A DNA stretch of 64,000 nucleotides from Antedon mediterranea (taxonomy: Eukaryota > Animalia > Echinodermata), in assembly GCF_964355755.1 (NCBI RefSeq), contig NC_092672.1, positions 12,214,001 to 12,278,000 on the forward strand, written 5' to 3'. The notes below the pieces were generated by a model, which saw only the letters and a program-made list of their open reading frames with translations, was not told the origin of the DNA and ran no database searches. The position numbers and the translations under genes are program-made. Positions 3,183 through 59,919 of this stretch are shown one piece after another. Position 1 is the stretch's first letter. Each line of letters opens with the position of its first letter.

Positions 3183-3712
3183 CTAAGCATTGTATTCTAA
3201 CTTTTTAGCAGGAACAGTCATGTTATTCTGATTTAAAAATGCAATAAATGATTGCAAGTTATCCTCCTTTAGAATCCCCCTTTGTTCAAGATCTAATATC
3301 ACAGTCCATTGGTTGTTACTTTGTTTTTTTAGAACACTTTTCAAACGGATGAGATCTCTTGTATTTTCTTTCGAAAGTGCGTCACCAAACTGAATTAGGT
3401 GTTGTCGATATGTTGAGAAGGAGGTGATAAACTGGTTGGTTTTATCAAATTTCTCCTTTAAGAGTTTGTTGACCTCCAGAACACCATTTGTACCAGTGAC
3501 ATTAATTGCGTCAACAATAACTTTAACGTTTGTACTGGTAAGATGGCCAGATCGTTTCAATAGGTTGAAGAAACGTATGCAGTCAGCATCCTGCAAATCA
3601 TTGTAAGGTGTTATCAGATCTTTGCATAACACCTTCAGTTTATCAATTGAGCCATGTTCATCATACCAGCTCGATATGTTTACCACGATTTTTTCAAACT
3701 CTTCGGATGATC
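3183..3712 (-). CDS. Terminal exon encoding a tandem death-effector-domain (DED-DED)-like module
   Basis: Acceptor ttttacag|GA. Second half FSTYRQHLIQFGDALSKEN...LDLEQRGILKEDNL resembles the caspase-8/cFLIP DED2 pattern (SxYR..L..I.E.....LD....E....L...L). First half FEKIV..IS....IDKLKVLCKDLI...FFNLLKRSG.L resembles DED1. Judged by eye, no HMM run. Confidence 0.75.
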
Positions 3713-24700: not shown

Positions 24701-27700
24701 TCGTGCATTCTGAAGAATGATTTTCATTTAAAAAATGCCTTATTTTTCATCATTTTCAGCACTTTTATGCAGTTAATATGCGCATTTTGTCATTTTTAAC
24801 ATGCTCGTATAGCGTTATTTTAAGTCGGAACGAACTCAAATTCGGTGAATGTACTAAGAATGGTGAGTAGAATGGGATTTCTACAAAAAATTTGTATTTT
24901 TACCCTTTTTAAGAATCGCGTGCTCAAAAACGCATTTTTGCGCAGTAATTTTTTGAAACACGCAAATGGCCTAAATTGATTAAAACTTGATTTTGAGCTT
25001 TTTAAATTTTGAACGCGCGATTTTACGCGCATGACCCTACGTGCGCGTGCGTTTTTACTTGCCAATATTTTTACCCTTGACCTGAAGTTTACGTGTAATA
25101 AATTTCATTAATATGTGATAAAGAATTATGGAGATATGATTGATAATGTGATTTCACAAAATGGCGTATAAATGACGTCACGGATGAGTGATCACGCTGA
25201 AAAGCTTATTAGGACTAAGTTAAAGTATTTGAAAGACATTGTGAAATTTTGGTAATCATTGACATTAAACTTTTTTAGATATTTGTTACACAAAATAGTG
25301 CCCAGAAACAATAATAACAATAAAGATTTGATACAATAACAATAGGTGATCATTTTATTCTAAATGATCGCCTAATAATCAAACCTTCCACTGAAGACAT
25401 AGAGTCAGAGGATATAGAACATTCGGAATCAGATATCGGTGAAGTTGAAACTGCATCATGTAAATGGAATTTGATTTCAGTTGACGTCATTGTTTCCACC
25501 TCTGTTGTGATTTGTTCAGGCGTTTTCGGGGATGTTCCTGCAATTCATTCAAATATATTTTTCAGACAAGTATGTAAATATATTAAGATGGCTATAATGT
25601 CACTATTAAGTCTGTTTCTTAACTTGGTTGCATTATATATCACCAATACACTTTGTTTAGTATTAAAAATACCCTTATAGTAATAAAAAATGTGGTTAAT
25701 ATTCATCATACCTGTTTTGTCTAGATCCAAGGAGGAGATTGCTGATGATTCCTGTATGGAATCAGATTTAGATGTTGACATATCTGTCCTTCCTTCACCT
25801 TCATGCATTTGTTCCTTTGTTACCTGTGTTGCAATTTTTTCTGCAAGTGTATCTTCCCGTATTTTCTTGTTAAGCTCTATAACTGTAAAAAAAAAGGTAA
25901 GTTGAAATAAGGTTGAACGGTACACATCATAGAGATAAATTAAAAGATTAAAATTAAAGAAATAAGATATATCATCAAATCATCATAATCACCTGTAAAT
26001 AACATACATATATGTATGTCATTTATAGACCAAATTATAGACCAAAATGAATTTTTATGTATCTAATAAAAATATTATTTCCAATGTACCTTACTGGTAC
26101 GATTTTACCTTTATTACTATTTTTATATAGATACTATTTAAATTGTATACACAAATGGGCCAAAGCAGGCATTAATGCGCATGTTGAAGGAAGAAGAAAG
26201 AAAGAGTTTCAGCACACTTTGAACGAAAAGTTAATGTGTCATTTGGTATGGTTGAATTCTTATTTTCAAACTTACCATCGATATCTTCCTTCTTCCACTT
26301 GTCACAGTCTTTTCCAATTGCTTGAAACAATGTCGTTGTAATAGCAATACCATCAGTAGAGGGTTCGTTGGATTTAAATCTATAATAATAAATAATGAAC
26401 TCCAAAAGGTTTAATGAAAGTAGAATATATCCAATAGTTCCTCTTAAAATATTAATATATTTCGAATAAAAACAAAGTGAAGATCACAAGTAAATTAATG
26501 AGCATATGCTTCATACTTCTTAGAGATATTTGAAACAAACTTGAAACTTCAGCAGCAGCATTTGCATCAGCATCGTGGTCGTCGTTCTCGCCGTCACCAT
26601 CACCCTCAATGTCACCGTTATCATCATCATCATCAATCGCCATTATAATCACCATCATTATTATTATTCGAAAAGGAATGACAACCCAAAACTTCAGGTA
26701 TCAACTATATATAATAAGAACCTCACTAATGTCAATTTCTGTATTTTAATGAATAATTATATATTTGAACACAAATAAGCACTTTATCTATTGTAATGGT
26801 AATGAACTCCAAAAGGTCGGATATAAAGAAAATAGAATGTATCCAATAGTTCATCTTAAAATATGAATATATTTAAAATAAAAACGAAGTAAAGATCACA
26901 AGTAAATAAGCAAATGCTTCATACTTCTTGGAGGTATTTAAAATAAACTGGAACCTTCAGCAGCAGAATTTGCATAAACAGCGTCGTCGTTCTCGCAGTC
27001 ACCATCACCATCATCTTTATAAGCATCAGCATCATCACCATCATCATCGCCATTATAATCATCATTATTATTCGAAAAGGAATGAAAACCCATTAATCAA
27101 AGATGAAACTTCAGGTATCATAAGAAGATAAAAACATCACTAATGCCAATTTCTGTATTTTTATGAATATTTATAGATTAAAATACTTAGCACCACACTT
27201 ACTATAAACAAGAAAACCAAGCAACTCTTTAAATGTTATCAGTTGCATTAGAGATACTTATGAAAAAAATATAAGGTTTTCAAAGAACAAAAGATTGATT
27301 TTAATATATATATCAGAAAATATTATTTTCTGATAAGGAATGTTATGCCATGACTATTATAGAGAACATGAATACACGATTAGAAATAAATGAGAACTCT
27401 ATTATATATAATATATTGTAATGGTAAAAACACCATTCAACTTGTATTACATGCTGTATATTGATGAAGACCATGTATATTTTATTGGTGCATCTTATAA
27501 AATAACTATGTTCTTTTGTTACCTTTGTCCAAGCATGGCCTTTACACAGCTAGTTTTTCCAGCACCTTCTTTCCCTAGAAACATACATCTTGAATTTACA
27601 ACTGCAATCTCACCATTTTCAAGTTCATTTTGAAATGATCTAATGGCGCTCTCACCTCTAGCTAATATTTCAACTGGAACTAAATTGCAATTAAAATAAG

Positions 27701-30700
27701 TGCAAAATATACAAAAACAAATACAAATATTTTGAATAAATTCAAAGCCATAGTTTTAAAAATGTCATTATGACAGCTAATCTTCGTCACATTCGTACAG
27801 TTCAAAGGTTCAGTACAATGTTAAATATGTGTCATTATTAATACACAGTTTAATATTCATGATGCAAAACTCAATCAAAGTGTATTAATACAAACTTACT
27901 GTCAAGTAACTTCAATATATTATTTTTCTTTTCTTTGGAGATATGACTATTATCCTTCAAAGCAGATGCTGGTGTTTGTCCTCGCTATACAAAAAATTGT
28001 ATTAAAGTATTATCCACTGTTACTTTACTAATCTATATATACATTTACGTAAGGGAAAAATCGGTAAATCTCGCCTTACTTCTAGAATTTTTACTCGATG
28101 GTATATAAAGTTGGTTCGTACTTTCGGTACTGATTTTAACCACCTTATGTAACTCTGTTTACTAATTTAAATTGAGTTAGATAATTATTTATTGATGATT
28201 AAAGCGAATTTACGATTTGCCCCGAATAGGTGTTTTTCACAAATTGTTTTACATTATATAAACACATATACAAATAAAATTTATTAATGACAGTTGCTTC
28301 TCAACGTTTGTATTAATTAATAATGTAATTACAAAAAAAATATAAACGTCGAGTGATGTATCGTTACATGTACTGTACTTCAATCGACTATGAGGGTGAC
28401 AGTTTCAACAAAGTATTAAATCGCAATGTTTTAATGTATTTAGTGGTATATTATTGTAAAACATGAAAACAATTAATATTTCGTTGCTAAATGGATAAAG
28501 AATATATTATAAAATTGTTCCTCTTTGCACTCATCCTCTTTTTCCATCCCTCAACCCTAATTTTACCTACAAAACACAAATTAAGTTTGTTTAAATTTGA
28601 CTCAAACAATTGGTCTCAATTTGTGACAAGTTTTTCTTTCGAAAGTAATTCACAGGGTGCTAATTTTAGTTGAGTACATAAATCACCGTTTTTATTTATT
28701 TCGTTATTATATTGTCCTGTGGTACGTACATTTGAAATCGCCAGTTTTTTTAACGCTGAAATTACTATGTATTCGAGAAGCATCTGTGGACGACCTAGAT
28801 GCGAGCGAAGCGAGTAAACTAGTAATTTACATAATCCGGATTGTAATAAACACATTCATAAGCTAATAGTGTGCACACGTTAATATGACACAATCTGAGT
28901 ACCTTTGCACTAACAAACAACAATACTAACTGCTCTACCATTTAATGTTTATTGTGATTGAATACACTTAGTCTTTAAAATCTCTCAAAACCCATATTTT
29001 GAATTTTTAATTGTCTAAATTTTTCTGTCTATGTAAAGCGCATTAAGGCTTTCAGCATAATGCGCTATATCAAGTACCAGTTATTATTATTATTATTAGT
29101 AGTAAAAATGCTATTGAAAAAAATATTATAAAAGAATAGTCGATACTGATTAAATGTACATGTTAATTATCGCATCTATGAGAATTTACCACCACTAGCA
29201 GCAACCCGTGCTCCGCATTGTCTTTGTCGACTTTAATATATGATTATATACTAATTCGCATGGGATGAGTAAGTATCATATAAGCGCACTCTTCCCTCAT
29301 AAAACGCCATGGATTTTGTTATACACCAAGTATTCCTTCAATTTTAAGTAACTATGAGCTACAAAATGAAAGCAATACTGGATATGGGACTTTACGAAAA
29401 TGGAAAAATTGTGCTGTGTGAATAAGATGATGCGCGCAATAACATAACAAAAGTATAAAATGGCGAACTATATTATTTTGGGTGTTTTTCGTGGTGTATT
29501 AATTATTATTTTGATACATTGAAATAAAAAGTGAACAAAAATGGACGGAGTAGAAAGTGCATGAGATTAAAAGATTTTAATGAAGTATTGGAATAAATCA
29601 ACACAAAAAGTAGTCGAAATTTGACGATGCGCTGACACAAACTATTACTTTTTGGGTGTATTTTTTCTTTGAGACGTCAATTACTGCTATTGTTTGCCTT
29701 TTTTAGTGTTTATCCTTAAAATTCAGGAAAGTGACATAGCCTATCGTGTGCGGCCCATCAATAAACATCAGTGTGCCAAATGTGAGCACTTACCGTTCAG
29801 TGGTTTTGGAAGAGATACATAAAATAAAAAAATTTAGTAGCATTAATGTAGATGCTAACATAATGGCTTTAAACAATTGGCGCCCTTTCTGATATTATTT
29901 GTCTCCATCAAGATAATGGTTACTGTGTATTAGTTAACACAAGATGTGTAATATTTTAAGTTGATAGATACTCCTAATCAAAATAAGAGTATACCTTGGA
30001 TATAGGGGTAATGGTTTGCTTAATAAGCACAATTTAAAAATGCAAATGCAATGTTGCTGCATTAATTGACGGTACCTTGTTTCTTGCTTTAAGTGATGCT
30101 CCGTGGGCTATGAGACTGTTCACTATTTCTATATTACCACTCGTGCCAGTCCTAACGTGTTCATGTAGCGGTGTGTTTCCCTTCTGGAAAGCAGAAAGTT
30201 GTATGTATAATAATATACATTTAACACTTTAGATACTAGAACTAAAGTTTAAACAAATTTAATATTGTATTCGTATCCTACAATTATAACAAGCAATTAA
30301 CTACTACATCTAATGTATTGTATATTTTGCTTCTCGTGGGCTACTCGTCTTTCAGTAGGTAACTTCGATGATCATCCCTGCCAAATTGCCAGGACTTGCG
30401 ATTATACAAGTACAATTATTTAAACTCTGGTGGCAACTGGAAATGCGTCTGGCAGATGGACAGCCGGGAATGAGTCCAACGGATGTGAAGCATATATGTC
30501 TATCGATTATAGAATGAAAGTTAGATGATAAATCTGAATTAGGGTAAAAAATTGACTTCAGTAATGTAAACGGGGTCCCATCGTTTTATTACTTTTTATG
30601 AAATCATACACATAAGGGCCATTATTGGTTCGGCATCATAGTCCGCAAGGTCTATGGTCAAGAAATTGTTAAGTAAATGGAGTATTTTGTTAATTGTCTA

Positions 30701-33700
30701 CGATAGACCACATTATAACAGTACTGTAAATAATACAACTAGTTGATTTCAATTGGGACGTGGAGAGGTGTTAGCAATGAACATACTTTTGAAAGTATTG
30801 GTATTACCGTCTTTGATAAATAAATAACTTTTTACACAATGAAAATAAATTAAACAAACACAAGGTTTGTTTATACGGGAGCTCATTTAGATTAACTTGT
30901 ATTGCTAACTAAAACGAAATAATAACATTAATAATTGTTTTAATCATTATAAGAGCAATTTACATTGTTTGTTGCTGTGATGAATGCTCCGTGGGCTAGG
31001 AGCCTGTTCAATATCTCTATATTACCACTGCCAACCTGAACGTGTCCATGTAGCGGTGTGTTTCCATCCTGGAAAGAAGAAAGTTAGATTAAACTTGACG
31101 CATTTTTTTTAAAGAATACATAGTATTATATTACATATTTATCCTTTTCTATATTTCATTTTGTAGTTTATTGAGAGTGACTGTAAATCATAAAGAAGAC
31201 ATGGTTTTAAGAAAATAATACAACTTGCTAATTTTAATTATTATAATACAGAAGGGTTAGCAATGAACACATTTTAAAAGTATTGATTTAGCGTATTGTT
31301 CAATCTAAAATGCTACAGCTACACTATTTTTAATATATTTTAAATTATATTTTTGGTTTGATAATAACTATACATTTTTTCCAATGAAAAACACATTAAA
31401 TAAACGAATCTAGGGTTTGTTTATAATGGTAGGTAATTTAGATTAATTTATAGTAACTAAAGCGAATAATTACGTTAATAATTTTTAAATCATTTTAAAA
31501 GAGTAATTTACATTGTTTGTTGCTGTGATTGATGCTCCGTGAGCTATGAGACTGTTCACTATCTCTACATTACCACAACCATGCATAACGTGTGCATCTA
31601 GCGGTGTGGCTCCATGCTGGAAAGAAGAAATTAGATTAAACTTGACGCATTTTTTTAAAGAATACAGGTAGTATTATATTACATATTTATCCTTTTCTAC
31701 ATTCATTTTGTAATTATTTAATAGTGACTGTAAATTATAATAAGGTAATAAGAAAATAAGAAGAAAATAATACAATTTGCTGAGTTTAATTATTATAATA
31801 CAGATGGGTTAGTATTGAACACATTTTAAGAAAATAATAATACAACTTGTACTATACCCTGGAAAGAAGAAAGTTAGATTAAACTTGACGCATTTCTTTT
31901 AAAGAATACAGGTAGTATTATATTACATATTTATCCTTTTCTATATTTCATTTTGTAGTTTATTGAGAGTGACTGTAAATTATAAAGACATGGTTTTAAG
32001 AAAATAATATACTTGCTGATTTTAATTACTATAATACAGAAGGGTTAGCAATGAACACATTTTAAAAGTATTGATTTAGCGTCTTGTTCAATCTAAAATG
32101 CTACAGCTACACTATTTTTAATATATTTTAAATTGTATTTTTGGTTTGATAATAACTATACATTTTTTCCAATGAAAAACACATTAAACGAATCTAGGGT
32201 TTGTTTATAATGGTAGGTAATTTAGATTAATTTATAGTGTTAACTAATGCGAATAATTACGTTAATGATTTTTAAATCATTTTAAAAGAGTAATTTACAT
32301 TGTCTGTTGCTGTGATTGATGCTCCGTGAGCTATGAGCCTGTTCAATATCTCTATATTACCACTGCCAACCTGAACGTGTTCATGTAGCGATGTGTTTCC
32401 ATTCTGGAAAGAAGAAATTAGATTAAACTTGACGCATTTTTTTAAAGAATACAGGTATTATTATATTACATATTTATCCTTTTCTATATTTCATTTTGCA
32501 GTTTATTGAGAGTGACTGTAAATTATAAAGAAGACATGGTTTTAAGAAAATAATACAACTTGCTGATTTTAATTATTATAATACAGAGGGGTTAGCAATG
32601 AAAACATTTTAAAAGTATTGATTTAGCGTCTTGTTCAATCTAAAATGCTACAGCTACACTATTTTTAATATATTTTAAATTGTATTTTTGGTTTGATAAT
32701 AACTATACATTTTTTCCATGAAAAACATATTAAACGAATCTAGGGTTTGTTTATAATGGTAGGTAATTTAGATTAATTTATAGTGTTAACTAATGCGAAT
32801 AATTACGTTAATGATTTTTAAATCATTGTAAGAGTAATTTACATTGTTTGTTGCTGTGATTGATGCTCCGTGAGCTATGAGACTGTTCAATATCTCTACA
32901 TTACCACGGCCAAGCCAAACGTATACATGTAGCGGTGTGTTTCCATCCTGGAAAGAAGAAATTAGATTAAACTTGATACATTTTTTTAAAGAATACAGGT
33001 AGTATTATATTACATATTTATCCTTTTCTACATTCATTTTGTAATTATTTAATAGTGACTGTAAATTATAATAAGGTAATAAGAAAATAAGAAGAAAATA
33101 ATACAATTTGCTGAGTTTAATTATTATAATACAGATGGGTTAGCATTGAACACATTTTAAGAAAATAATAATACAACTTGTACTATACCCTGGAAAGAAG
33201 AAAGTTAGATTAAACTTGACGCATTTTTTTTAAAGAATACAGGTAGTATTATATTACATATTTATCCTTTTCTATATTTCATTTTGTAGTTTATTGAGAG
33301 TGACTGTAAATTATAAAGACATGGTTTTAAGAAAATAATACAACTTGCTGATTTTAATTATTATAATACAGAAGGGTTAGCAATGAATACATTTTAAAAG
33401 TATTAATTTAGCGTCTTGTTCAATCTAAAACGCTACAGCTACACGATTTTCAATATATTTTAAATTGTATTTTTGCTTTGATAATAACTATACATTTTTT
33501 CTACTAAAGAAAAACACAATAAACGAATCTAGAGTTTGCTTATAACGGGGGACAATTTAAATTCACTTGTAATGTTAACTAATACGAATAATTACGTTTC
33601 GATTTTTAAATCATTGTAAAAGAGTAATTTACATTGTTTGTTGCTGTGATTGATGCTCCGTGGGCTATGAGACTGTTCACTATCTCTACATTACCCTGGG

Positions 33701-36700
33701 CAGACCTAAAGTGTGTATGTAGCGGTGTGTTTCCAATCTGAAAAGAAGAAAGTTAGATTAAACTTGACGCATTTTTAAAGAATACAGGTATTATTATATT
33801 ACATATTTATCCTTTTCTATATTCATTTTGTAATTCATTAAGAGTGAATGTAAATTATATAGAAAAATCTAGTATTAAGAAAATAATAAAACTTGTTTAA
33901 AAAGTATTGATTTAGCGTCTTTTTCGATCTAAAACCCTACAGCTACACGATTTTCAATATATTTAAAATTGTATTTTTGCTTTGATAATAACTATATATA
34001 CAATGTTTCCAATGAAAAACACATTAAACGAATCTAGGGTTTGCTTATAACGGGAGATAATTTAAAATGACTTGTATGTTAAGTAATACAAATAATTACG
34101 TTAATGTTTTTTAAATCACTGTCAGTATAAGAGTAATTTACATTGTTTGTTGCTTTGACTGATGCTCCGTAAGCTATGAGATTGTTCACTATCTCTAAAT
34201 TACCACGGCCATACATAACGTGTTCATGTAGCGGTGTGTTTCCATCCTGAAAAGAAGAAAGTTAGTATTATTATATTTCATATTTATTCTTTTCTACATT
34301 CATTTTCTAATTCTAAGAGTGAATGTAAATTATATAGAAATACCTGGTATTAAAAAATGACTAACTGATTTCAATTAAGACATGCAGAGGATTTAGCAAT
34401 GAACATCATTTTGAAAGTATTGATTTTAGCGTCTTATTTAATCTAAAATTCGACAGCTGTACATGATGTTTAAATATCGTAAATTATATGGTGATGGTTA
34501 ATAACTATAAATAATATAATTTATTAAATTAATAAACATATTCCTACGCCTAGACATTTCGTTTAGATTCAAGTAAACTTTCATGAGTACTGAATTTGTA
34601 GATATTAGTCCGGTGGCAGGAGGGGGGAATCACCACCCGAAAGGGGACAAATTGCCATCCAACTTTTCTAGACTCGAATTTTCCGTAGATTACGAATATG
34701 GAAGGTAATCGATCAGGATAGGAAGCGTTTTCGAGATATAAGGGGTCAAAGTTCAAAATTGACCAATTACAACAATGTATTATGTATATGTATTATAACA
34801 AATTTATTGAAGCACAATTTGGTCTTTTATTACATTTTTATGATTATAAGTGTCTATTCAATCACCTTATGAAAAAAAAAATCCTTTGTGATTAAGGGTC
34901 AAATGTCAATATTGACCAATCATAGAACGTACCTATAAAACCAAATAAAAACTAATATTTAATCAAAATTGGATGTTTTCTCATTCTATTAATCAATCAT
35001 ACGCAATGTAAAAGAGCGAATACATCATTTCATCAGTTGACATAAGGTCAATTTCATCAGTTGACATAAGGTCAAACGTCAACATTTTAATACGCGTATT
35101 AGTTAACAAATAAATGCAAAGTTGTCCAAACTAGTATGATATTGATGGTTTTACAAGTAATCAAATTATTTGATTAGTAAAGTTATGTTATTTCATTATA
35201 ATTTTGATTAATATAATTATAATACTGTATTTAATCAAATCAGACTTCGATCAGGATAGGAAGCGAATAGGAAGAGATAAGGGGTCAAAGTTTAAAATTG
35301 ACCAATTATAACAATGTATTATATACATATGTATTATTAACCAGTTTATTAAAGTTCAATTTGGTCTTTTAATATATTTGTATGGTTATAGGTATTGTAT
35401 GGTGTTATTCAGTCGCCTTATAAAACAAATACTTTGCAATTAATGGTCAAATGTCAATATTAACCAATCACACAATTTGCATTTAAAACCAAATAAAAAC
35501 TAACATTTAAGACAAAATGTTATGTTTTATCATTCTGTTAAGACATCTATCAATCATACACAATCAAAAGAGCACATTTATCATTACACAAGTTGACATG
35601 GGTCAAAGGTCAACATTTGAACAAATGATATACTAAATAATGCAACTTTTCAAACTATGAGATCGATGTTCATAAATGTAATCACGTTATTTGATCAGTG
35701 AAGTTATGGTATTTTTATATTTTTTCTAGTGCGCATTATTTTAAATGTATTAATATAATACTGTAAAATAAATAATAAAATTAATATTATGACGATTAAA
35801 ATGTTATGATGTTAAAATGTTGCGCTGACCTTCAATGATTTGCCACTATACAGTTGCATTTATTAGGGCTACAATATTCGTCTTTGGAAAATAAACTACT
35901 ATTCATCAGAACCAGAGAATACAAATTCGTACAGGGTAGGGCATAGGCAGATCCAGGTGGCCAAACTCAATCCACAACTCACTACACAGACAGACCACAA
36001 TTTTTATATAGTTGTGCCCATACAGGAAAGAGTTTCCTGTATACAAAGGATTCTAAAATAACCCATGTGGATTTGCCCGAATGAACCCTCTAAGGACCCT
36101 TTTGGGATCTATATGTGGTGTGCTACATAAGGCCCTGTATTAGAAATTAGTATGGGGTAAATAGTTCATAGATGAACTATGGAATAAAACTAAATGTGCA
36201 CCCTCAATCTTTAAATAACATTTATGGATTTTCCCAAATGAACCCAAGGGCCGATCCTTCATGGACCTTTCGGGGTTCTCTATGTGGGGCTACAAGAAAC
36301 CCTATATTGGAAATAATGTATGTGGGGTGAAAATGTGGGTTCATAGAGATATAATAAATCCCTGTGCACCCTCGATCATCCATAAGGAATATTTTATGGA
36401 TTTGCCCAAATTAACCCAAGGGCCGGTCGTTCTCCATGGATGGACATTAAGCCCCATAATGGAAATATAAGGGGTGACACTGTGAGTTCATATAGACAGG
36501 CGTGGCCCATGAATTAAGCTGCCTGTGCACTCTCGATCCTTAAGAAAAATTTATGGATTTGCCCAAATTAACCAAAGGGCCGGTCCTCCATGGACATTAA
36601 GCCCCATAATGGATATTAATGGATGACACTGTGGGTTTATATAGACAGGCACAACCATGGAATAAAGCTGCCTGTGCACTCTCGATCCTTAAGGAACACT

Positions 36701-39700
36701 TATGGATTTTCCCAAATTAACCCAAGGGCCGGTCCTCCATGGATGGACATTAAGCCCCATAATGGACATTAAGGGGTGACACTGTGGGTTCATAATAGAC
36801 AGGCGGGGCCCATGGAATAAAGCTACCTTGCACTCTCGATCCTTAAGGAACACTTATGGATTTGCCCAAATTAACCCAAGGGCCGGTCATCCATGGACAT
36901 TAAGCCTCATAATGGAAATATAAGGGGTGCCAATGTGGGTTTATATAGACAGGCACATGGAATAAAGCTGCCTGTGCACTCTCGATCCTTAAGGAACCGA
37001 TTTGGATTTTGCCTAAAATGAAACAACAGCAGGTCATCTATTTAAACCCTTCTGTGGTTCTCTAATGTATGTTCAGTTCTACATTTGGCTCCTGTATCGG
37101 ATCAATGCATTTGGCTACATAAGTTACTGTGTTAGAAATATATCGGGTAACTAAAACTGTAGGTTCCAATATTAAGCCATGGGAAAAGCCTGTCTGTGCA
37201 CTCTCAATCCTTTTAAAAGGAACCCATATGGATTTGCCAAAATGAACCAAGTGTAACTTCTGAATTCGCTATGAGCCGTACATTCCGTTTATTGGAGATT
37301 CGTGGATACCTGATTGAAATTGCTCAAATATTTCTGAAAGACATTGTACTGTATAGTAATAGTATTATTCCCCTTCCACACCTCTTTGAATTAAATCCGC
37401 CCTGATAGGCTCTTAGGTACAGGATTTAAAAGCAATAATCACACTTGTATTTTTCAAACAGTATAATCTATTAGATTGAATAAAAATATCTATTATAAAC
37501 AATTTGCCGTTAGAAATCTCTGTGCCATGTCGTTATTTAGATGAGAAAAACAGGTCAAAGGTTAAAATTACAGAAAAATAGGTGTTTCAGTCACTTTTTG
37601 AAAAAAAGCTGCATTATGGCAAGTATAAACATATATATTGTGAACAATTTGACACCACAATTGGCTCCTTACGACAATTATTTATTAATTTATGTTTTTA
37701 TGACCTTATTCAATTATGTCAAAGGTTAATAACCACACTTTCGGTCATTTTCAAGCAATATCATCTGTTATACTGAATATAAATGTATATCTTGGGAACA
37801 ATTTGCTCCTATTTTTAATTCTCTCCGACCTGCCGTTACTTAGATATAGCAAAAAGAAAGAGGTCAAAGTTCAAAATTGCTAACAATGGAGTTTCCGGTC
37901 AATTTTTCAAAGAAATTTCTGTTAGAGCTAATATAAACATATACATTGTGAACAATTTGACACCAAAATTATCTCACTACGCCCAGAATTTCCAGAGATA
38001 TAGCATGTTTTTATATTGGTCAATTTTGAACTTTGACCCCTTATATCTCGAAAACGCTTCCTATCCTGATCGATTACCTTCCATATTCGTAATCTACGGA
38101 AAATTCTGGTCTAGAAAAGTTGGATGGTAATTTGTCCCTTTTCGGGTGGTGATATCCCCCCCTCCTGCCACCGGACTATATGTATGTATTACCAAACCGC
38201 CTTCAAAACATAATTGCAAATTCCAACAATACACTCTACGGTGAATTCAATAAATATTTTGTTATATTATTAATCTACTATCCATCCCACCTTCATCCTA
38301 CAATAAATAAAAATATTACGTAATTCGTTTCTCCCATTTGCTATGAGGCTTTTGAATGCAAGTGTAGTGAATTTATCTTAGTTGGTTCCGAGCTTTCTCA
38401 GGCGTATATATTTCCACGCGACGTACACAGCTGTCACTGAATGATAACTCATACAAAAAGTATATTTAACTCAACTAGAACTTGTATTCCTTGTAATTCG
38501 ATTAATACATCTTTCTACCACTACCAGTCAAGCCTTAATATTTTCTTTATCAACTTTCCGTTTATCTACTCTGATCTTATTCTCTCTTCTCTTCTAATAT
38601 CTATTACATTCTACTTTTATACTGCATAACTGTATGCAAATTTTAGGCTTCAGAGGAGGATAACATTTTCCCTCCAAAAATTATACGATTTTGATTGGCT
38701 AATAATAAGGCGGACCTGGTCTAAAACATCCTTCTCTAAACACAGAGAATCACAACATTTAATATGACAGCAAGGTATGTGTATGTATTGAGTTATATGA
38801 CATTTGCCTTTTTGTTATATTTGTTGCATTTGTATTTTATCCTATATGTGACGTACTGTCTGTAGTTTACCATTTTTTTTTCTACTAGGAATAATAACGT
38901 TAATGATTTAAATAATAGTAAATCTCTGTCAAACGCTACCAAACTGCATCAATAAAGTGTCGTACTTTCTGTATTTTACCAATTTTATCATATCTTTGCT
39001 ATATTTATTTAATATGTGACAAGCAGGACAATTTGTTTTACATTTCTCAGAGCTTGTTGGTATTTCATCATAATTACATTTTTCACAAATTAAAATATTG
39101 TGGTTTAGGGCCTGCATAGTTATTATCAAACATTCTCATATACAGTACTTCATTGCCTCTTTGTACTGTATTTCACCTTTCCTAGCTGTGGATGCTTGCC
39201 ATCGTCGCATAACATGCTCGTTTAACTAACAAATAAACAAGTAGCAAAATCAGTTTTACCACATTTGACCAGTGTCATAAAAAACTTCTTGGAAGAGAGA
39301 TTAGGATCTCAAAATCACAATAAATGCGTAAAAATTGAATCAAACAACAATAATAACAAACTACTATTTATCAACTGTGAGATTTAACAACAACAATGTA
39401 TCTCGTCTCGTTCCCTCAAGCAAGCTTGCCGTTAAATAATTATAGAGGGGGTAGTTTCAATAAACTTTGGCAGACGGCAAACATACAATGTATAGAGTGC
39501 GTTTAAATATGTTATGAGCTTACTAATGAGATCAGTATTTGTAGTAGTAGACATAATGACAATATATTTTAATTTAGATGGATTATTTGTGTAATAGGAT
39601 CGAAAACATATACTTAGTTCTACTATCTGAATAAACTAAAAGGAATTCATCTTCAATTGATTGTAGAGAGCATAATTTGCATAGTCTATCATTTCTATTA

Positions 39701-42700
39701 GGCCTAATACGATTCCATCTTCCTTTTTCTAGTTATAATATTCCTACCTAGTCTTAGTTTAGTCACAATGTGTCTATGTTTCTAATTTTAATTAAGTATT
39801 CTTCCATAATTCCAACATAATTTATATTGAATGCGTGTGAAATATTGGAGTTTATAGAGAGTGTATTAACCTATTATCTCATAGAATTGTGTCGTTCAAT
39901 AAGCCTCGCCTTTGTTTAAATTTTGAAATAAAAAATATTGTTGACCTGTTGAGCATGCCATGTTGCCAAATCCATTTATAGGCCTACATAATAAGTTTTA
40001 CATCATTCACCCAATTCGCTCATTTTGTTACGCTTTTCTATGTTGAAAATCGTAAAATTGTTTAATGATTTTTTTATAATCTATTTGGCTTACTCTCAGC
40101 CACTAACGAATTCAATTAATGATACTTTGAGTTTGGATAGGGAATTTTCGATATTCTCCTCTCACTGCATCACTTGGTGCAAAATTTTCTATTCCTAAAA
40201 GATATTTTTATTCTAAAATCAAAATATAATCCAAGTGGTATGAAGACATTGTTCATCTGCTGGAAAACTACAAGTCAGTCGATGCTACAAACTACAAGGG
40301 TTCGGAGAAGTCAAGCAGGCAGAAATGCATTATATCTCAGATGCTAGTGAAGTAGTATGTGGTCAATGCATGTATTTAAGATTGATGCCCTCATGATAAT
40401 ATTTCTTCTATTTCGATATCAAGTGTATGTAGCTAACCGGGTATACAGCAAATCAACGATGTACCTTCCATAGAAAACATCTTCTAATCCGAGTGATATA
40501 GTCAGTAGAGCCGTGCGTGCTAACAGTAAGCAATTGATTTGAGATACCGGATGGGTGAGTAGTTCTACACTTCTTCACCAGGTAGTTCTTAACAAACAAA
40601 GGCGGTTGGCCGAAATCGATGACGAATCGCGTATAACGTTGTTGCTTCAGAACTAAAATATATTCGCTCATTCCACACTAATGTTGACAAAGTTACTTCA
40701 GAATGGGTTTATGACAGATAAAATGAACTATAAATCACATTAAATGTATTGAATGTTCATTCCCCTTAGAGGAACCAACACGTAGTAAGGCATATTTTTT
40801 AGATATGCCTATCAAAGGTAAACTTAACAGTGATACAAAACACATGCAATAATTTAATATGAAAAGATTGGTGTAAATATTGCGAGGAGCCATGTACCGG
40901 CAGTATGTGTAACTGAGTTAATGATTATGTAATTGTTGTTGAAGATTATGCTCATCGGGAATAATTTGCATAAAATACCATGTTAGCCTACGTATATTAG
41001 AAATCTCACTAGCTAGTGTAGTTAGTTGAGACGATGCTATCGTCAGCTGCACGATTTTTAATATATTTTAAATTGTAGTTTTGCTTTGATAATAATTGAT
41101 TTTAATTATTATAATACAGAAGGGTTAGCAATGAACACATTTTAAAAATACTACTTTAGGCTCTTGTTCAATCTAAAACGCTACAGCTACACAATTTTTA
41201 ATATATTTTAAATTGTATTTTTCCTTTGATAATAACTATACACTTTTCCAAAGAAAAACACATTAAACAAATCTAGGATTTGCTTATAACGGGAGATAAT
41301 TCAAATAATTACGCTATGGATTTTTAAATAATTGTATAAGAGTAATTTACAATGTTTGTTGCTGTGACTGAGGCTCCGTTGGCTATGAGACTGTTGACTA
41401 TCTTTACATTATTCCTGCCAGACTCAAGGTGTTCATGTAGCGGTGTGTATCCATCCTGGAAAGAAGAAAGTTAGTATTATTATATTTCATATTTTTCTTT
41501 TCTACATTCATTTTCTAATTCATTAAGAGGGAATATAAATTATATAGAAATACCTGGTATTAAGAAAATAATGACTAACTGATTTCAATTAAGACATGCA
41601 GATTATTTAGCAATGATCATCAACAGCGTCTTGTTTAATCGAAAATTCGACAGCTGTACATGATGTTTAAATATCGTAAATTATATGGTGATGGTTAATA
41701 ACTTTAAATAATATAATTTATTAAATTAATAAACATATTCCTACGCCTAGACATCTCGTTTAGATTCAAGTAAACTTTAATGAATACTGAATTTGTAGAT
41801 CTGTATGTATTACCAAACCACCTTCAAAACATAATTGCAAATTCCAACAATACACTCTACGGTGAATTCTATAAATATTTTGTTATATTATTAATCTACT
41901 ATCCATCCCACCTTCATCCTACAATGAAAAAAAAAGTTACGTAATTCGTTTCTCCCATTTGCTATGAGGCTTTTGAATGCAAGCTATGTGTATGTATCGA
42001 GTTATATGACATTTGCCTTTTTATTATATTTGATGCATTTGTATTTTATCCTATAGGTGTCGTACTGTCTGTATTTTACCAATTTTGTTTTAACTACTAC
42101 GAATAATATCGTTAATGATTTTAAATAATAGTAAATCTCTTTCAACGCTACCAAACTGTATCAATAAAGTGTCGTACTGTCTGTATTTTACCAATTTTAT
42201 CATATGAAAAGATTGGTGTAAATATTGCAAGGAGTCATGTAACGGCAGTATATATTATATAATTCGCTGTCAGATGATACTTCACACTTGAAGTATCTAG
42301 GCATGATGAAGTGACCCCTAGACTTGACCTTAGCAATAAAATAAACTAAAGTGACTGATATGAAACACAGACTCTGTAACAAAAAAATAATATTTGTATT
42401 TGTAAAAAAATAAAAGAAACGTTTAATTATAACTCAAAAACCATTGTCTGACAGACAATTTAAGTATTGTTTGCTTTAAATTACATTTTTTCAGGTAAAA
42501 TAACTATTATGTGACAATAAAATGACACATATTCAAACACAAATTTGAAATAAAAAATATTTTTCAGAGGGACAATATATCTTTAAAACTGTTACGTCAA
42601 TAAGCGAGCAGCGTTTTTTGTAAGAAATATTTCTTGTAGATATGCCTATCAATGGTAAGCTTAACAGTGATATAAGACAACAAAACACATACAATAATTT

Positions 42701-43397
42701 AATATAAAAAGATTGGTGTAACTATTGCAAGGAGCCATGTAACGGCAGTATGTGTAACTGAGTTAATGATTATGTAATTGTTGTTGAAGATAAAAACCAT
42801 GTTAGCCTACGTATATTAGAAATCTCACTAGCTAGTGTAGTTAGTTGAGACGATTCATCGTTATTAAATGTATGTTATGTCATACTATTATACAAAAAAT
42901 TATCTCCATTGTGGCATGATTACACGCAATCTGTCTTTCTATTACGTTTTATCTCAACTCAAAGAAGTGGCAAGTGAGACCGTAGTTATAGTATAGAGTA
43001 GATTGTCTGTTTGTTATTGGTTCTTAGTAATGTTGTCATACATTATATAAACGTTTTCGTGTTTTTCACCCTTGAGGTTACCGTAAACATGGTGATTATT
43101 TATATCATATTCAAATTCAAATAAATATAGTTTCTATACCTTATCTACAGAGTTCACAAGATGTGGATATGTTTTACATATTTCTTCAATTTCTTCCAAA
43201 TCTCCATATCTTACAGTTCTTAGCAATACGTTTCTGGAAATAAAGAAGATAAAAATGAATCATGGCAAGAATACTCGGTCGATGATGTTAATATGTTTAT
43301 TTGTCATGTTTCTAAACAATAATAAATACAATTTTCTTTGAACTATTTAACATATTATACGTTTGTTGGATATAAAATATAAAGCTTACTTTGGCAT
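3183..43397 (-). CDS. Multi-exon ROCO-family gene: ANK repeats - Roc - COR - tandem DED (~1359 aa, 27 coding exons, no kinase)
   Basis: Hand-spliced exons in transcript order (+ coordinates): 43390-43397, 43140-43233, 41351-41455, 34142-34246, 33633-33737, 32843-32947, 32299-32403, 31512-31616, 30964-31068, 30076-30183, 27900-27984, 27523-27679, 26276-26379, 25712-25882, 25385-25537, 22273-22440, 21635-21849, 21129-21254, 15509-15703, 14995-15240, 13995-14189, 13689-13850, 13277-13579, 12644-12724, 12341-12548, 12061-12096, 3183-3712. All junctions are GT-AG, phases are compatible, total is 4080 nt with no internal stop. Motifs: TPLH ankyrins; PVEILARG; P-loop GKEGAGKTS; STDGI; WDYAGQ; LVATHMD; COR IPLKW/YLNDIGVIMY/FLVP; tandem DED. 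Small exons could be missed, and there is no transcript support. Confidence 0.85.
4693..5830 (-). pseudogene. Frameshifted C-terminal fragment of Academ protein (left arm)
   Basis: ORF pieces 5592-5825 (LDG.AII..L...SKTF; RLDL.F.....SLKSGTRSNR), 5151-5456 (EEADERMF) and 4693-5154 (P.NWG; Cys8). Confidence 0.75.
5924..6838 (+). pseudogene. Inverted second copy of the same Academ C-terminal fragment (right arm)
   Basis: Reverse complement of ~4740-5695, with deletions. ORF 6106-6384 reads EEADERMFFHVKHAA...VKTVDSDVVVI. Confidence 0.75.
7063..10065 (-). pseudogene. LINE ORF2 (AP endonuclease + reverse transcriptase), split by two frameshifts
   Basis: APE motifs HLNLRSL, ISETWL, GGGVAIY, VYRPP, VGDLN, PTR, IDLIF, SDH. 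RT motifs NYRPIS, NQSGFR, FLDLKKAFDTVDH, GVPQGSILGPLLF. One extra base breaks YADD (ctc ta[a]t gca gac gac, ~7902). A second frameshift lies near 9200. Confidence 0.92.
10118..10903 (-). CDS. LINE ORF1 protein (coiled-coil + L1-type RRM/CTD)
   Basis: Intact 261 aa with EQYSRRNCLIIQGI, IDRSHRLG, R.IIVKF, IYIHENLT and VWTQDGRI motifs, directly upstream of ORF2. Confidence 0.88.
   Translation of the reverse strand: MAGKNTRKGGKKDSGKECCELNTDTAPVIDVEPLTITVQNEISNIIKGNTSIFNDLAEEIVSIVKHQLIESITQIVTDAAIEAIRFELDDTKDRLSKVEQQVDNLQYELDEAEQYSRRNCLIIQGIEEKQGEITDNIVLDLFKKKLSVEVDKTCIDRSHRLGPKVKKNGRARGIIVKFSSYNVRNEVYRAKKKLKGSHIYIHENLTSKRSSLLRTVKQNYASVVSAVWTQDGRIHTIITGSNEKVVLSRTSDLKQLPKCKR
12341..15240 (-). CDS. 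COR-domain exons of the ROCO gene (14995-15240, 13995-14189, 13689-13850, 13277-13579, 12644-12724, 12341-12548)
   Basis: IPLKW...; AIAYLNDIGVIMY...V; LWKKL..EGILEEKLL.HLW; MKTFGLL; FLVPC; FLPDSVYNTLVV. These are typical COR-A/B motifs following Roc. Confidence 0.8.
14351..14557 (+). mobile_element. Short non-autonomous Helentron/HINE (DINE-1-like) element
   Basis: ttttaatcgcgtggacgcgactctata 5' palindrome, (GTCG)n microsatellite, subterminal cacgcgact, and ggccttgttt 3' end in T-rich flanks. Confidence 0.7.
15509..27679 (-). CDS. Roc GTPase-domain exons (G1 27523-27679; G2 26276-26379; G3 21635-21849; 21129-21254; G4 15509-15703) with a long low-complexity insertion
   Basis: SRCMFLGKEGAGKTSCVKAMLG; PSTDGI; TIWDYAGQLDYYITHR|FFLTNRVSYCVAFN; MFWIRSI...PPICLVATHMD. 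Confidence 0.9.
15866..19446. mobile_element. Non-autonomous PIF/Harbinger-like TIR element (~3.6 kb), probably with nested sequence
   Basis: TIR cgcccgtattcttaaacc.gactttagtcgtagt / actacgactaaagtccggtttaagaatacgggcg, flanked by TAA on both sides. No convincing ORF. Confidence 0.75.
19610..21013. mobile_element. Non-autonomous Academ-type element with long TIRs
   Basis: TAGTCCATGGG...CCCATGGACTA termini, 3-bp TSD TTA, TIRs of several hundred bp, and internal repeats of the arm sequence. Confidence 0.75.
23812..25376 (+). mobile_element. Non-autonomous Helentron-like element
   Basis: Starts aactagaatttaattcgtcactttgacgaatt (hairpin) followed by ataggtgat. Ends aataggtgatcattt...aaatgatcgcctaat (hairpin reusing the subterminal repeat). 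Confidence 0.55.
26390..27170. repeat. Intronic ~410-bp tandem duplication containing (CAT)n-rich microsatellite
   Basis: aatgaactccaaaaggt occurs at ~26393 and ~26801, and the following sequence stays collinear in both copies. Confidence 0.8.
28960..29098 (+). mobile_element. 3' end fragment of an L2-type LINE or related SINE
   Basis: tgtaaagcgcatt...aatgcgctatat stem-loop followed by a (TTA)n tail. Confidence 0.5.
29195..29852 (-). mobile_element. Non-autonomous Helitron
   Basis: Minus strand begins A|TC (29852) and ends gcggagcacgggttgctgCTAG|T (29195). This gives TC...CTAG termini inserted between A and T. Confidence 0.6.
30076..30183 (-). CDS. Ankyrin exon A8: KGNTPLHEHVRTGTSGNIEIVNSLIAHGASLKARNK
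   Basis: 108 nt, phase 0-0, ttccag| ... |gtaccg. Confidence 0.9.
30964..31068 (-). CDS. Ankyrin exon A7: DGNTPLHGHVQVGSGNIEILNRLLAHGAFITATNN
   Basis: 105 nt, phase 0-0, canonical splice sites. Confidence 0.9.
31512..31616 (-). CDS. Ankyrin exon A6: HGATPLDAHVMHGCGNVEIVNSLIAHGASITATNN
   Basis: 105 nt, phase 0-0. Confidence 0.9.
32299..32403 (-). CDS. Ankyrin exon A5: NGNTSLHEHVQVGSGNIEILNRLIAHGASITATDN
   Basis: 105 nt, phase 0-0. Confidence 0.9.
32843..32947 (-). CDS. Ankyrin exon A4: DGNTPLHVYVWLGRGNVEILNSLIAHGASITATNN
   Basis: 105 nt, phase 0-0. Confidence 0.9.
33633..33737 (-). CDS. Ankyrin exon A3: IGNTPLHTHFRSAQGNVEIVNSLIAHGASITATNN
   Basis: 105 nt, phase 0-0. Confidence 0.9.
34142..34246 (-). 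CDS. Ankyrin exon A2: DGNTPLHEHVMYGRGNLEIVNNLIAYGASVKATNN
   Basis: 105 nt, phase 0-0. Confidence 0.9.
34606..38178. mobile_element. Non-autonomous Academ-type element inside the ankyrin array, with an internal ~120-bp tandem repeat (~36050-37250)
   Basis: TAGTCCGGTGGCAGGAGGGG...CCTCCTGCCACCGGACTA termini, ~160-bp TIR, 3-bp TSD TAT. The duplicated intron at ~41795-41810 shows the empty site. Confidence 0.8.
38363..38769. mobile_element. Solo LTR (407 bp, 5-bp TSD GCAAG)
   Basis: TG...CA termini. Empty site ttttgaatGCAAGctatgtg at ~41971-41990. Confidence 0.75.
40230..40390 (+). mobile_element. Decayed BEL/Pao retrotransposon pol (RNase H) fragment
   Basis: Translates EMHYISDASEVVCGQCMYLRL, matching the BEL/Pao ELH.FSDAS..GYG.C.YLR motif. 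Confidence 0.55.
41351..41455 (-). CDS. Ankyrin exon A1: DGYTPLHEHLESGRNNVKIVNSLIANGASVTATNI
   Basis: 105 nt, phase 0-0. Flanking introns are homologous to those of A2. Confidence 0.88.
43140..43397 (-). CDS. First coding exons: MPK|NVLLRTVRYGDLEEIEEICKTYPHLVNSVDK (ankyrin N-cap)
   Basis: Exons 43390-43488 (ATG at 43397, preceded in frame by TAA) and 43140-43233. The sequence fits an N-capping ankyrin (L...V..GDLE.I......P.LVN..DK) and joins A1 in phase 0. Confidence 0.7.
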
Positions 43398-46300
43398 TTA
43401 AAAAATGCAGCCCCCCTCAGTTTGAAGATATAACTTATTCATCCATTGAAAGAAGTGCACTCTGTAGTTGCCAATCATTTTGTGGTTGCTGAAAAATGAA
43501 ACATAAACTTTAAGCATAATGTATTTTTATTATTTTATTTTCTGTTCATTTTTCAATATTTCAATATTTTGCAATACTAGAAGTTCTTCTTCTAATATTT
43601 CATATTAAATTGAAAAATGAAGAGTAAACAAAAATGAAATACATTTGTATATTTTAGGCCTAATTGTCTTAGAAGAATTTACAAGAATTGATATTTATTC
43701 GAGCAGACCAACCATAAACGGCTTTGTTCTAGTATATCATTTACTGTCAATATTCGTATTGTTGTCAAAGCATTGTACCAATCATTTAATAAAAACATGT
43801 TAGGATTTATATACATGTTTCAAGTTTGTATTTTAACATAAATTATATAATTCCCGGTGGGAGCTAATAGATAAACTGCCGATATCAGATATAAGAAGTT
43901 TCTTCCCAAAGGTAAGAAACATATCATCTCTTCTCGCCTTAAGTGAAGTAAGACACTGCCTTGGTCCTGCCAGACCCCAAAATAAAAGTTCGACTATAAA
44001 CCCAATTACATTGTAATTAATTACAAATGACCTAAAAGATCTATACATATACACTGCTTTGGTTCTTCCGACAACCACACTCCAACAGATAGACATCCCC
44101 TACCTATTGCTGATAGAATGATCTAGCACATTGTAAGGAATATAAAATAAGCTATTACTAACTACCTACTTTGCATAGTACTGCCTTAGTTCTATCATCC
44201 CCATGTGAATATAGGCTACAATATCTCATCTGAGCTATCTTTTGGTACCAGAATATAAATACCAATATTCCCGCAAGAAATAAAAACAAATTTAATTGTT
44301 TAAAGTTTATGTATATTAGTACATTCATCTATTTGCAAATTAGAGTCATCAAAATTATCATAAACAAAAATAGATTAAAACCATTATAAAGGGAAACTTT
44401 AACAGTTTCTTTTAAAATATATAAGCTAATAATAAAATCTCACTTTTCAAAGTATGATGAGGTTGGAATCCACAATCTAACATATTTACTGACCAAACTC
44501 AATTTTACAGAAAATAACTTAAAAATAATAGTTGTGTTTAGGTACAGTATATATATATTTATATTAAACCGATGGCAACCATAAAATCGGTGAGAAAAAT
44601 ATGGATTATTCTGTAAATTTACACGATTAGATGGTTACCTAAAAACAGTATATTTTTACATTTAAAGTTTACTGTCCTAGTCATTGCTCCACTCAGACCC
44701 AGAACTTGTATCATCTTTACTGTTTTCGGTCACAGATACATCTTCAAAAAGGTTGTCTGAATGCCTATTTAGGAAACCAGTCAGACATATAAGCGAAATA
44801 GAAAGCTGTATTTTACAGTATTGAAACAACTAGTATTTACTAGAACTTTAATTTTTTATTTCTAAATAGTAAACAGTATACAAAATAATTATAAATAGTA
44901 GAAACTCACACACGTCACTGCATTATAGTAAATGTAGTGTACTATTCATTATGTATTCATGTGCAAAATCCTAACATTGGTAGCCGGTGGCATATGCAAT
45001 ACTGTATCTAATGTACAGTAGGCTCCATGGATCCGGGGGTTTGTAATCGAAATTTAGCGGGCTCTTTGGTATTCCAATGTGCTAGATCATATGGTTGCTG
45101 ATGGTATCTACAATAGAATAGCTTAGTTGGGAGAAAGGGGGTCTCTATAGTCAAATTTTAGAGCGTCTGGTACTTGCGGTGCCGTGGACAATTAGTCTGT
45201 TGTTACCCATTTAGTACTGTATGAACTCTACTTATTTATTTTACATTGATTGTGAGTGGTATCTCACTCATATATACTGCCCATTCTTTAGGTCCTCCTT
45301 AGGGGATCTGGAAGGCTAATTGCAAGAGATAAAATATCTGTCGTTTGTGAATTTGGTAGGAGAATGTCATAGTATATAGTGATGAAATTACAGTAGGTGG
45401 TATCCCACGTCTATACGCAGCAGAGGGATACCCGACAGGGCATAGGGAAATACGTAATAAAAAAAAATAGATATACAAAAAAAAAAGTTAATTGTCTACA
45501 ATGTATTTGACAAATTTGCACATAGCAAGATACGATACCTACCCAACCATGTAGCATAGCATTAGCAATAAAATAAATTTAGCGATTCAATATTTAATAA
45601 CAATAGCAATTTTAAGCTATGGATACGAAACTGCATTATGGAATATTTAGATTATTTTTTATACCAAAATAGTAATATTTGGAAATTTGATTTCGTATTA
45701 TTTACATAATAAGTAGTGTTTACTTATTTACTACATAAAAAACTTGGTCGGAGATTTTTTGGCGGTTTTCCCCCTCTAAATCTCTTTTCTTTATCTCTCA
45801 AGTTATTCTGCATTTGAGCCTATTTTATTGGATTGTCATAATCTTTTTCCATTGTATTTATTTTATTTAGTTTTATTATTGATGTTTTATTTGTTTTTGT
45901 AATTAGCTATCGTTCTAAACGGTAGTATCCTAAATGTATGCATAAATAAATCAAGAAATCGATGAGCACCATGTTGCAATAAGCAGAATTCGTTTCTTCT
46001 TCGACTTAATTTAATTCAATATTTGGATTCAATTCTGTCGATATGTCATTGCCACAGTGACAATTATATTAAATGACTACATATCAACATCATGCCTGTA
46101 TCTGTCATTCTATGTGGACGAATGTATCTAACATTTATTTTCAAAGTTGTGAGAACATCTGTGGGTACTTAACAAAGTTATTTTTAATTTCGTAAACATT
46201 CCAAAACCTTTAGGGCAGCCTAAGAATTGGGCGATGATGTAGGCATAAATGTACCCCAATTTTTAATATGTTGCAAATCTATAGTAGATTTTAACTGTTT

Positions 46301-59880: not shown

Positions 59881-59919
59881 GTTTGTTTCAAAAGTCAAGT
59901 GAAGTGTTTTAATTAATAA

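Follow-up and report, generated by a model that had tools for sequence, protein, structure and literature searches.

The animal ROCO protein DAPK1 combines a ROC-COR core with ankyrin repeats and a death-fold domain. In brown algae (Ectocarpus, Saccharina), two papers (PMC3341825, PMC11378527) describe clustered ROCO paralogues in which the ROC-COR core is joined to leucine-rich repeats (LRRs), one per 72-nucleotide (nt) phase-2 exon; in each repeat a small number of positions on the concave binding face are under positive selection, and an immune role has been proposed. NOD-like receptors (NLRs) of Podospora (Pa_3_8560, het-e/het-d), according to PMC4986451, carry ankyrin repeats with a homogenised scaffold, five selected inner-helix/hairpin positions and repeat-number polymorphism; in these proteins the repeats are coupled to a death effector and a nucleotide switch. 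Here we analyse a stretch of 64,000 nt from the feather star Antedon mediterranea (NC_092672.1), referred to as the window, whose positions are used for all coordinates. It holds a ROCO gene with an array of eight single-repeat ankyrin (ANK) exons, and codons 1, 8, 11, 12 and 14 of each repeat are under diversifying selection. We consider it probable that this crinoid array, with its five diversifying groove codons, is the recognition part of a cytosolic sensor that would act through a GTPase switch on the clustering of a predicted C-terminal tandem death effector domain (DED).

The locus shares with the algal genes the ROC-COR core, the single repeat per exon, positive selection at a few positions of each repeat and the clustered paralogues, and with the fungal receptors the homogenised scaffold and the five selected positions; both analogies had been drawn by the first-pass annotation of this DNA and agree with what the papers describe. 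It differs from the algal genes in its ankyrin repeats, encoded by 105-nt phase-0 exons, in the predicted tandem DED, in its animal host and in the window introns, which hold two exon-less units instead of reversed or spare exons. As compared to the fungal receptors, the switch is a ROC GTPase instead of NACHT/NB-ARC, the putative sensor is N-terminal and the effector C-terminal, the repeats are intron-separated exons, and they are less alike, with 54-69% identity to the first repeat and a mean column identity of 77%, against at least 85% reported for the fungal high-conservation ANK NLRs. No Pfam match to NACHT or NB-ARC was obtained on the RefSeq proteins P0001, P0002, P0006, P0009, P0012 and P0069 of the family, and by its predicted domains the gene is a ROCO member, neither an NLR nor an LRR-ROCO. 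The animal ROCO proteins DAPK1 and LRRK1/2 likewise possess ROC-COR, and ANK-ROC relatives occur in Anneissia, Glandiceps and Branchiostoma; the feather-star gene is set apart by the absence of a kinase, the predicted tandem DED and the near-identical hypervariable repeats. The first-pass annotation knew of no such system in animals, and our literature search, with most subscription journals outside its scope, found no report of an animal exon-per-repeat ANK-ROCO-DED system. Also outside that negative are the figures and supplements of PMC11378527, where about forty architectures of animal ROCO proteins are treated, possibly with ANK-ROCO-DED among them. The available text of PMC8195603 and PMC9334734 describes other invertebrate death-fold and ROCO-TIR expansions, including ROCO-TIR proteins in Aplysia (PMC9334734), and not ANK-ROCO-DED.

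The array and its caps comprise ten exons:

43140..43233, minus strand: N-capping ankyrin exon (resembles the P0012 N-terminus; a contig of sequencing run X7 joins its end to an ANK exon)
41351..41455, minus strand: ANK exon A1, 35 codons (Pfam Ank 24.5 bits, cut-off 21.1)
34142..34246, minus strand: ANK exon A2 (Pfam Ank 30.1 bits, cut-off 21.1)
33633..33737, minus strand: ANK exon A3 (splice sites, DNA profile match)
32843..32947, minus strand: ANK exon A4 (splice sites, DNA profile match)
32299..32403, minus strand: ANK exon A5 (Pfam Ank 23.8 bits, cut-off 21.1)
31512..31616, minus strand: ANK exon A6, with TPLD in place of TPLH (splice sites, repeat alignment)
30964..31068, minus strand: ANK exon A7 (splice sites, repeat alignment)
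30076..30183, minus strand: ANK exon A8, 36 codons, last internal repeat (Pfam Ank 26.5 bits, cut-off 21.1)
27900..27984, minus strand: C-capping ankyrin exon (junction common to the RefSeq paralogues P0002, P0011 and P0012)

Each of A1-A8 encodes a single ankyrin repeat in 105 nt (108 nt in A8), and all eight are symmetric phase-0 exons that follow a CAG acceptor and end at a GT donor; the Pfam Ank cut-off was passed by all four exons scanned (A1, A2, A5 and A8). A DNA profile search with nhmmer recovered exactly eight copies in the 64-kb window and no reversed or pseudo copies, two extra 24-nt matches (E 6-7) being noise. The eight one-repeat exons of the first-pass annotation were confirmed at their stated positions. 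Its description of the scaffold as almost invariant even at synonymous sites did not hold: only 11 of the 35 residues are invariant across A1-A8, and in codons 16-35 the nonsynonymous (pN) and synonymous (pS) differences per site over the 28 exon pairs are equal (0.116 and 0.117), so that the scaffold looks homogenised, not demonstrably constrained.

Over whole exons, the same 28 pairs gave a pN of 0.180 and a pS of 0.085; in codons 1-15 the values are 0.266 and 0.045. The residues in A1-A8 are D,D,I,D,N,H,D,K at codon 1, E,E,T,V,E,A,G,E at codon 8, E,M,R,W,Q,M,Q,R at codon 11 and S,Y,S,L,V,H,V,T at codon 12, and codon 3 has just three residue types (Y/N/A), all exactly as first listed; codon 14 reads R,R,Q,R,S,C,S in A1-A7 and T or S in A8, depending on where the extra codon of that exon is placed. 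The early remark that first and second bases change while the third stays fixed was borne out, the third positions of codons 8, 11 and 12 being invariant; across A1-A8, extra alleles at codon positions 1, 2 and 3 number 29, 17 and 11.

Site models were fitted with purpose-written codon-model code, not PAML, on three topologies in four fits. M2a was preferred over M1a, with likelihood ratio statistics of 28.5 and 24.4 when the exon tree was used and of 44.7 and 32.9 with the two intron trees (p 2e-10 to 5e-6), with a positively selected class comprising 15-17% of sites at a nonsynonymous-to-synonymous rate ratio (omega) of 10-13. Codons 1, 8, 11, 12 and 14 were picked in all four fits and codon 20 once. 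Thus, among the codons originally put forward as selected (1, 3, 11 and 12), the third is not chosen by the site model while the other three stand, and codons 8 and 14 are added. Four C-terminal exons compared between neighbouring gene copies served as a control within the window and gave a pN of 0.018 and a pS of 0.061 over 284 codons, a ratio of 0.3 that indicates purifying selection.

Tandem duplication, gene conversion between paralogues or local hypermutation could in principle produce such a pattern neutrally, the more so as synonymous sites are few, recombination can inflate site tests, and the exon and intron trees disagree. Neutral simulations matched for divergence (1500 each on a star, on one tree, with a new tree per five codons and with a new tree per codon) gave four codons with at least five residues in 0 of 6000 cases, with and without recombination. 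A fast class confined to nonsynonymous change fitted better than a hot-codon class by 7-10 log-likelihood units, and the hot-codon model was rejected against the free one on three trees (p 4e-6 to 6e-5). As a model-free check on recently duplicated units, exons were contrasted with introns: A4 and A6 differ at 12/105 exon positions (11 nonsynonymous) and 9/403 flanking intron positions (Fisher p 2e-4), and A4 and A5 at 11/105 and 2/227 (p 9e-5). With the lack of third-position change in codons 8, 11 and 12 and the recurrence of the same five sites in an independent paralogue, the neutral explanation is largely refuted and appears very improbable. Besides a neutral or hot-spot origin, two further readings were rejected: a plain scaffold ankyrin and a chance frame in a tandem repeat.

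Paralogues were compared as RefSeq proteins, at the amino-acid level. P0012 comprises the N-cap, six repeats (eight in the window gene), the C-cap and the start of ROC. Its per-site diversity tracks that of the window array (Spearman 0.50, permutation p 5e-5), and the five window sites are again its most variable ones, only 15 of 324632 sets scoring as high (p 4.6e-5). The two genes share their majority residue at 31 of 35 positions; the differences lie at 8, 11, 12 and 14, with a charge swap at codon 8 (mostly E in the window, R/K in P0012). Pooling the eight window exons with ten repeats from P0012, P0105, P0002 and P0011 yielded a distinct five-site combination in 18 of 18 repeats and 7-11 residue types per site as compared to at most five elsewhere, the first residue of three truncated models being possibly a model artefact. 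The initial claim of diversifying selection at a few ankyrin positions is thus supported by the site models, the hot-codon comparison, the simulations and this paralogue replicate.

The selection could be real and yet serve another end, namely escape from parasite inhibitors, as a guard or decoy whose groove binds a host partner or folds on ROC-COR, or self/non-self or gamete compatibility in place of pathogen sensing; the sequence signal would be the same. In the ROCO proteins LRRK1/2, N-terminal repeats can be autoinhibitory, which counts in favour of this alternative. So does the role in allorecognition of fungal repeats with a like pattern (PMC4986451). The distinct combination in every repeat and the charge swaps at codon 8 between genes fit a repertoire of binders more readily than a single conserved self partner, and we hold the alternative to be unlikely.

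In its structure model, P0012 forms a regular stack of ankyrin repeats with repeat 5 as the exception, with a predicted local distance difference test score (pLDDT) of about 90 in five of six repeats and 43-69 in repeat 5; it matches DARPins (designed ankyrin repeat proteins) and gankyrin at 2.2-2.9 Å, including 6moi and 4o60 at 2.2-2.5 Å. Codons 1, 3, 8, 11, 33 and 35 align to the randomised positions 3, 5, 10, 13, 33 and 2 of the ANK-N5C library. Codon 12 corresponds to ANK-N5C position 14, which varies among the DARPin chains examined and which we take to have been randomised in the original DARPin library. The suggestion that codons 1, 3, 11 and 12 lie at library-randomised groove positions is therefore upheld by the ANK-N5C alignment for the first three and by the DARPin chains for codon 12, although codon 3 is not selected. 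Four of the five selected sites fall on library positions, and the library positions at codons 3, 33 and 35 vary little. The codon set 1, 3, 8, 11, 12, which includes codon 8, shows excess variability (p 2.5e-5), as does a stricter six-position DARPin set (33, 35, 1, 3, 11, 12), based partly on DARPin chains (p 0.0014 in the window, 0.010 in P0012).

In the ANK-N5C library, the randomised positions are described as forming one continuous binding surface of turn and helix 1 (PMC4308713); for the DARPin library six randomised positions are given (PMC9611651). Judging from this mapping, the five selected sites are predicted to be surface-exposed and to face the binding groove. Both libraries and the feather-star array are capped stacks of repeats varied at turn and helix 1 (PMC9611651, PMC4308713), built on a consensus in the libraries. 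The feather-star array differs in being natural and germline-encoded, in its repeats of 34-36 residues, in the small variation at library positions 33, 2 and 5, and in an insertion of two residues after helix 1, absent from DARPins, in which the selected codon 14 sits.

The array forms the N-terminus of a 27-exon gene model with GT-AG introns and no internal stop, in support of the earlier assignment to a ROCO gene. The model comprises 1357 residues, or 1359 with an upstream ROC acceptor used by paralogues, in the order N-cap, A1-A8, C-cap, ROC, COR, linker and a last exon with the predicted tandem DED; its last 798 residues (562 to end) equal RefSeq P0001 (XP_071944621.1). Apart from the array, its features are:

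43439..43446, minus strand: Met-Asp-Glu start in phase 2, probably ancestral (agrees in phase with MDE at the beginning of P0012)
43390..43397, minus strand: inferred fallback start, ATG with GTAAGC donor, in phase with the N-cap exon and used in the model
27523..27679, minus strand: ROC exon with P-loop GKEGAGKT (gene model; Pfam Roc on paralogue P0002)
21129..26379, minus strand: six exons covering switch I of ROC, a long Ser/Thr/charged insert, then WDYAG (G3) and the strand after it (gene model)
12061..15703, minus strand: eight exons with ROC G4 (THMD), COR and linker (gene model; Pfam COR-A)
3183..3712, minus strand: last exon, predicted tandem DED and stop (Pfam, structure model, Foldseek)

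The ROC motifs G1, G3 and G4 are all present in the model. Pfam Roc scored 41.2 bits on P0002 (cut-off 27) and only 19 bits on the truncated P0001, and COR-A, directly following ROC, scored 57.9 bits (cut-off 35.3) on P0001, that is, on the tail of the model. The structure model of the last exon has a pLDDT of 92.7, and all 22 Foldseek matches listed are DEDs of caspase-8, cFLIP or viral FLIP, the best being tandem DEDs of caspase-8/cFLIP with a template modelling (TM) score of 0.71-0.73 (best E 1.3e-4, TM 0.71). The C-terminus is accordingly predicted to adopt a caspase-8-like tandem DED fold.

Contigs of sequencing runs were also inspected, with coverage read outside the C-cap-to-ROC stretch and the N-cap/A1 region, and contig joints among intron repeats were excluded since repeat misplacement can create them. 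Run X7, from another sample and study, appears RNA-like and seems to hold spliced exons of the family: its contigs span A8, A4 and A2 border to border, the contig on A8 continues with 30/30 bases of the C-cap exon start, and the one on A2 is preceded by 28/30 bases of the N-cap exon end. This N-cap-to-ANK join, placed on A2, would fit alternative splicing of repeat exons of the kind known from the brown-algal genes, or may represent the first repeat of a paralogue; the A8-like contig has a 6-nt gap, as expected of the last repeat of P0012. Among the matches listed, contigs of run X1, probably the assembly's own sample and so not independent, show more exon variants with changes at codons 1, 3, 7, 8 and 12-14. 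Runs X5 and X6, labelled as a second organism, also contain the exon-intron unit. Among the runs searched, none is recorded as RNA, which carries no information on expression.

Several observations weigh against the sensor interpretation. Synonymous divergence (dS) is poorly measured, the data being limited to 8 exons of 35 codons in which synonymous changes are scarce; the background class in the hot-codon comparison has an omega of 1.1-2, not below 1, with no purifying signal in scaffold codons; and A5 against A7 gave no significant contrast (exon 8/105, intron 6/178, p 0.15). Pfam DED found two stretches in the last exon at 31.2 bits, below the cut-off of 35.9. The RNA nature of X7 is a guess, no ANK-to-ANK junction is present among the matches listed in that run, and its contigs differ from the window exons at 4-9 bases, so that they show splicing of the family (other alleles or paralogues) and not of the window allele. 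The RefSeq model of the locus has its start at residue 562 and contains neither the ANK nor the P-loop exons. The likely ancestral start reads ATG GAT GA (43446-43439), one of three such 8-mers on the minus strand of the 64 kb, and P0012 begins with MDE-K; the next six bases are ATAAGT, with AT where a GT donor is expected and where P0012 presumably has GT.

Because of this AT, the first coding donor may be damaged in this haplotype and the copy impaired. The family would then be functional while the ANK exons of this copy are no longer spliced in, leaving a damaged allele or repeat reservoir and a truncated ROC-COR-DED product. The RefSeq start at residue 562 fits such a copy, as do the introns of 7.1 kb and 8.3 kb with inserted elements, the TSLH of A5 and TPLD of A6 at the TPLH motif, the equality of pN and pS in the scaffold and the two units without an exon. 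However, frame and both splice sites are kept in all eight exons, and in-frame fallback starts and donors exist, among them, besides the one used in the model, ATG 43442 or 43478 with a weak GTTATA donor. That RefSeq cuts P0002, P0011 and P0105 short within the array as well suggests a fault of annotation. We regard this explanation as quite unlikely; it concerns the copy only, and the selection signal remains.

Turnover of repeat units is visible in the array itself:

30964..33632, minus strand: higher-order duplication of recent origin with two exons per unit (A7-A6 and A5-A4), about 1.33 kb (intron/exon comparison)

The two duplicates differ at 12/434 and 31/681 intron positions and at 8/105 and 12/105 exon positions. 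Two units at ~31860 and ~33191 (minus strand) retain the acceptor of an ANK exon, followed by intron-derived sequence, the exon being gone; these are footprints of exon deletion.

That the protein combines a GTPase, a predicted death domain and a variable binding surface makes it a likely variable sensor of invaders. In such a system, intron-flanked phase-0 units would be duplicated and deleted by unequal crossing-over, with the 1.33-kb repeat and the exon-less units as its footprints, and gene conversion would keep the scaffold alike, the contact residues being reset again and again by selection. The ligand would be a fast-changing non-self molecule whose binding switches the ROC-COR GTPase; this switch would cluster the tandem DED, which could recruit caspase-8/FADD-type partners, with cell death or immune signalling as the presumed output. 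The immune function of the family is inferred from this architecture.

The array has relatives well beyond this locus. A search with the last exon returned seven proteins among 863 candidates, all from Antedon mediterranea, and an ANK-profile search returned 57 matches, including two Antedon proteins; none of these 57 is a RefSeq model holding A1-A8. A ROC-COR search gave 43 matches among 3090 candidates (14 Antedon, 23 Anneissia japonica and 6 others). The Antedon models are spread over at least five large contigs, their number not being a gene count because many are fragmentary. In a tree of 35 rows (input: 15 Antedon rows, 19 of the 23 from Anneissia and 3 of the 6 others, with P0072 and P0100 dropped for want of an anchor), 14 Antedon rows form one branch (96/100), and the search and tree together show separate expansion in the two crinoids. 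Other Antedon subfamilies (P0069, P0006, P0068, P0070 and P0124) contain runs of near-identical repeats on scaffolds of their own, and P0069, by eye, varies just past helix 1. Among 12 Anneissia models inspected, repeats are divergent and no runs of near-identical ones were found, which is weak evidence because gene models drop such exons. A wide search recovered 3141 proteins at E 0.001, with ANK-ROC relatives from Glandiceps and Branchiostoma; at least two TPLH-type motifs before the P-loop, by a strict pattern, occur in 5 of 137 more distant representatives.

Two COR types occur in one cluster (P0001/P0004/P0008/P0009/P0105 and P0002/P0003/P0011) with ANK/ROC starts and DEDs that resemble each other closely (89-91% identity in the DED), which suggests mosaic paralogues. 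In the brittle star Amphiura filiformis, P0177 has several similar FN3-like repeats (by eye) and no ankyrins before ROC, possibly the same design with another repeat. The window also holds part of a second copy:

61351..63827, minus strand: 3' end of a neighbouring paralogue, four exons (fits RefSeq P0009), with 23 differences in 284 codons and no stops

The A1-A2 intron (7.1 kb, 34247-41350) carries a satellite of 150 bp (near 36000-37250) together with two oppositely oriented copies of one element, at about 34600-34750 and 37990-38180. A long interspersed nuclear element (LINE) at 7066-10912 on the minus strand, with an ORF1-like frame, endonuclease and reverse transcriptase in several frames, sits inside the 8.3-kb last intron, the matching intron of the neighbouring copy being ~200 bp. 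The DNA that separates the two gene copies contains pieces of a Mutator-like element (MULE) transposase and of FLYWCH, at 48038-49198 and 52567-53283 on the minus strand. Satellite arrays with periods of 71, 63/64, 39 and 34 bp occupy 10-1161, 51073-52513 and 58882-60737, and the long open frames of the 39-bp array follow from its period alone. Fragmented frames in both orientations at 4696-6773 resemble the remains of a transposon that has decayed and is partly inverted; Pfam gave no match on the single frame scanned there.

Overall, these results extend the design of a homogenised scaffold with a hypervariable face to an animal ROCO gene with ankyrin exons and a predicted tandem DED. They suggest that expanded invertebrate ROCO families, annotated as uncharacterized proteins, include NLR-like sensors in which a GTPase replaces the ATPase of the STAND (signal transduction ATPases with numerous domains) class. 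That automatic annotation drops the ANK exons may explain why the family has gone unnoticed. The five sites provide a direct, testable handle on ligand specificity, and the selected codon 14 marks a loop unused by synthetic ankyrin libraries. A bolder reading, which we consider rather unlikely, is that of a natural DARPin library, in which phase-0 ANK exons with hypervariable contact codons undergo recombination, skipping or exchange between clustered paralogues, perhaps inside a single animal, and the resulting binders are wired to a caspase-8-type death filament. If true, it would amount to an anticipatory intracellular receptor system in an invertebrate deuterostome, with a large repertoire of cytosolic binders.

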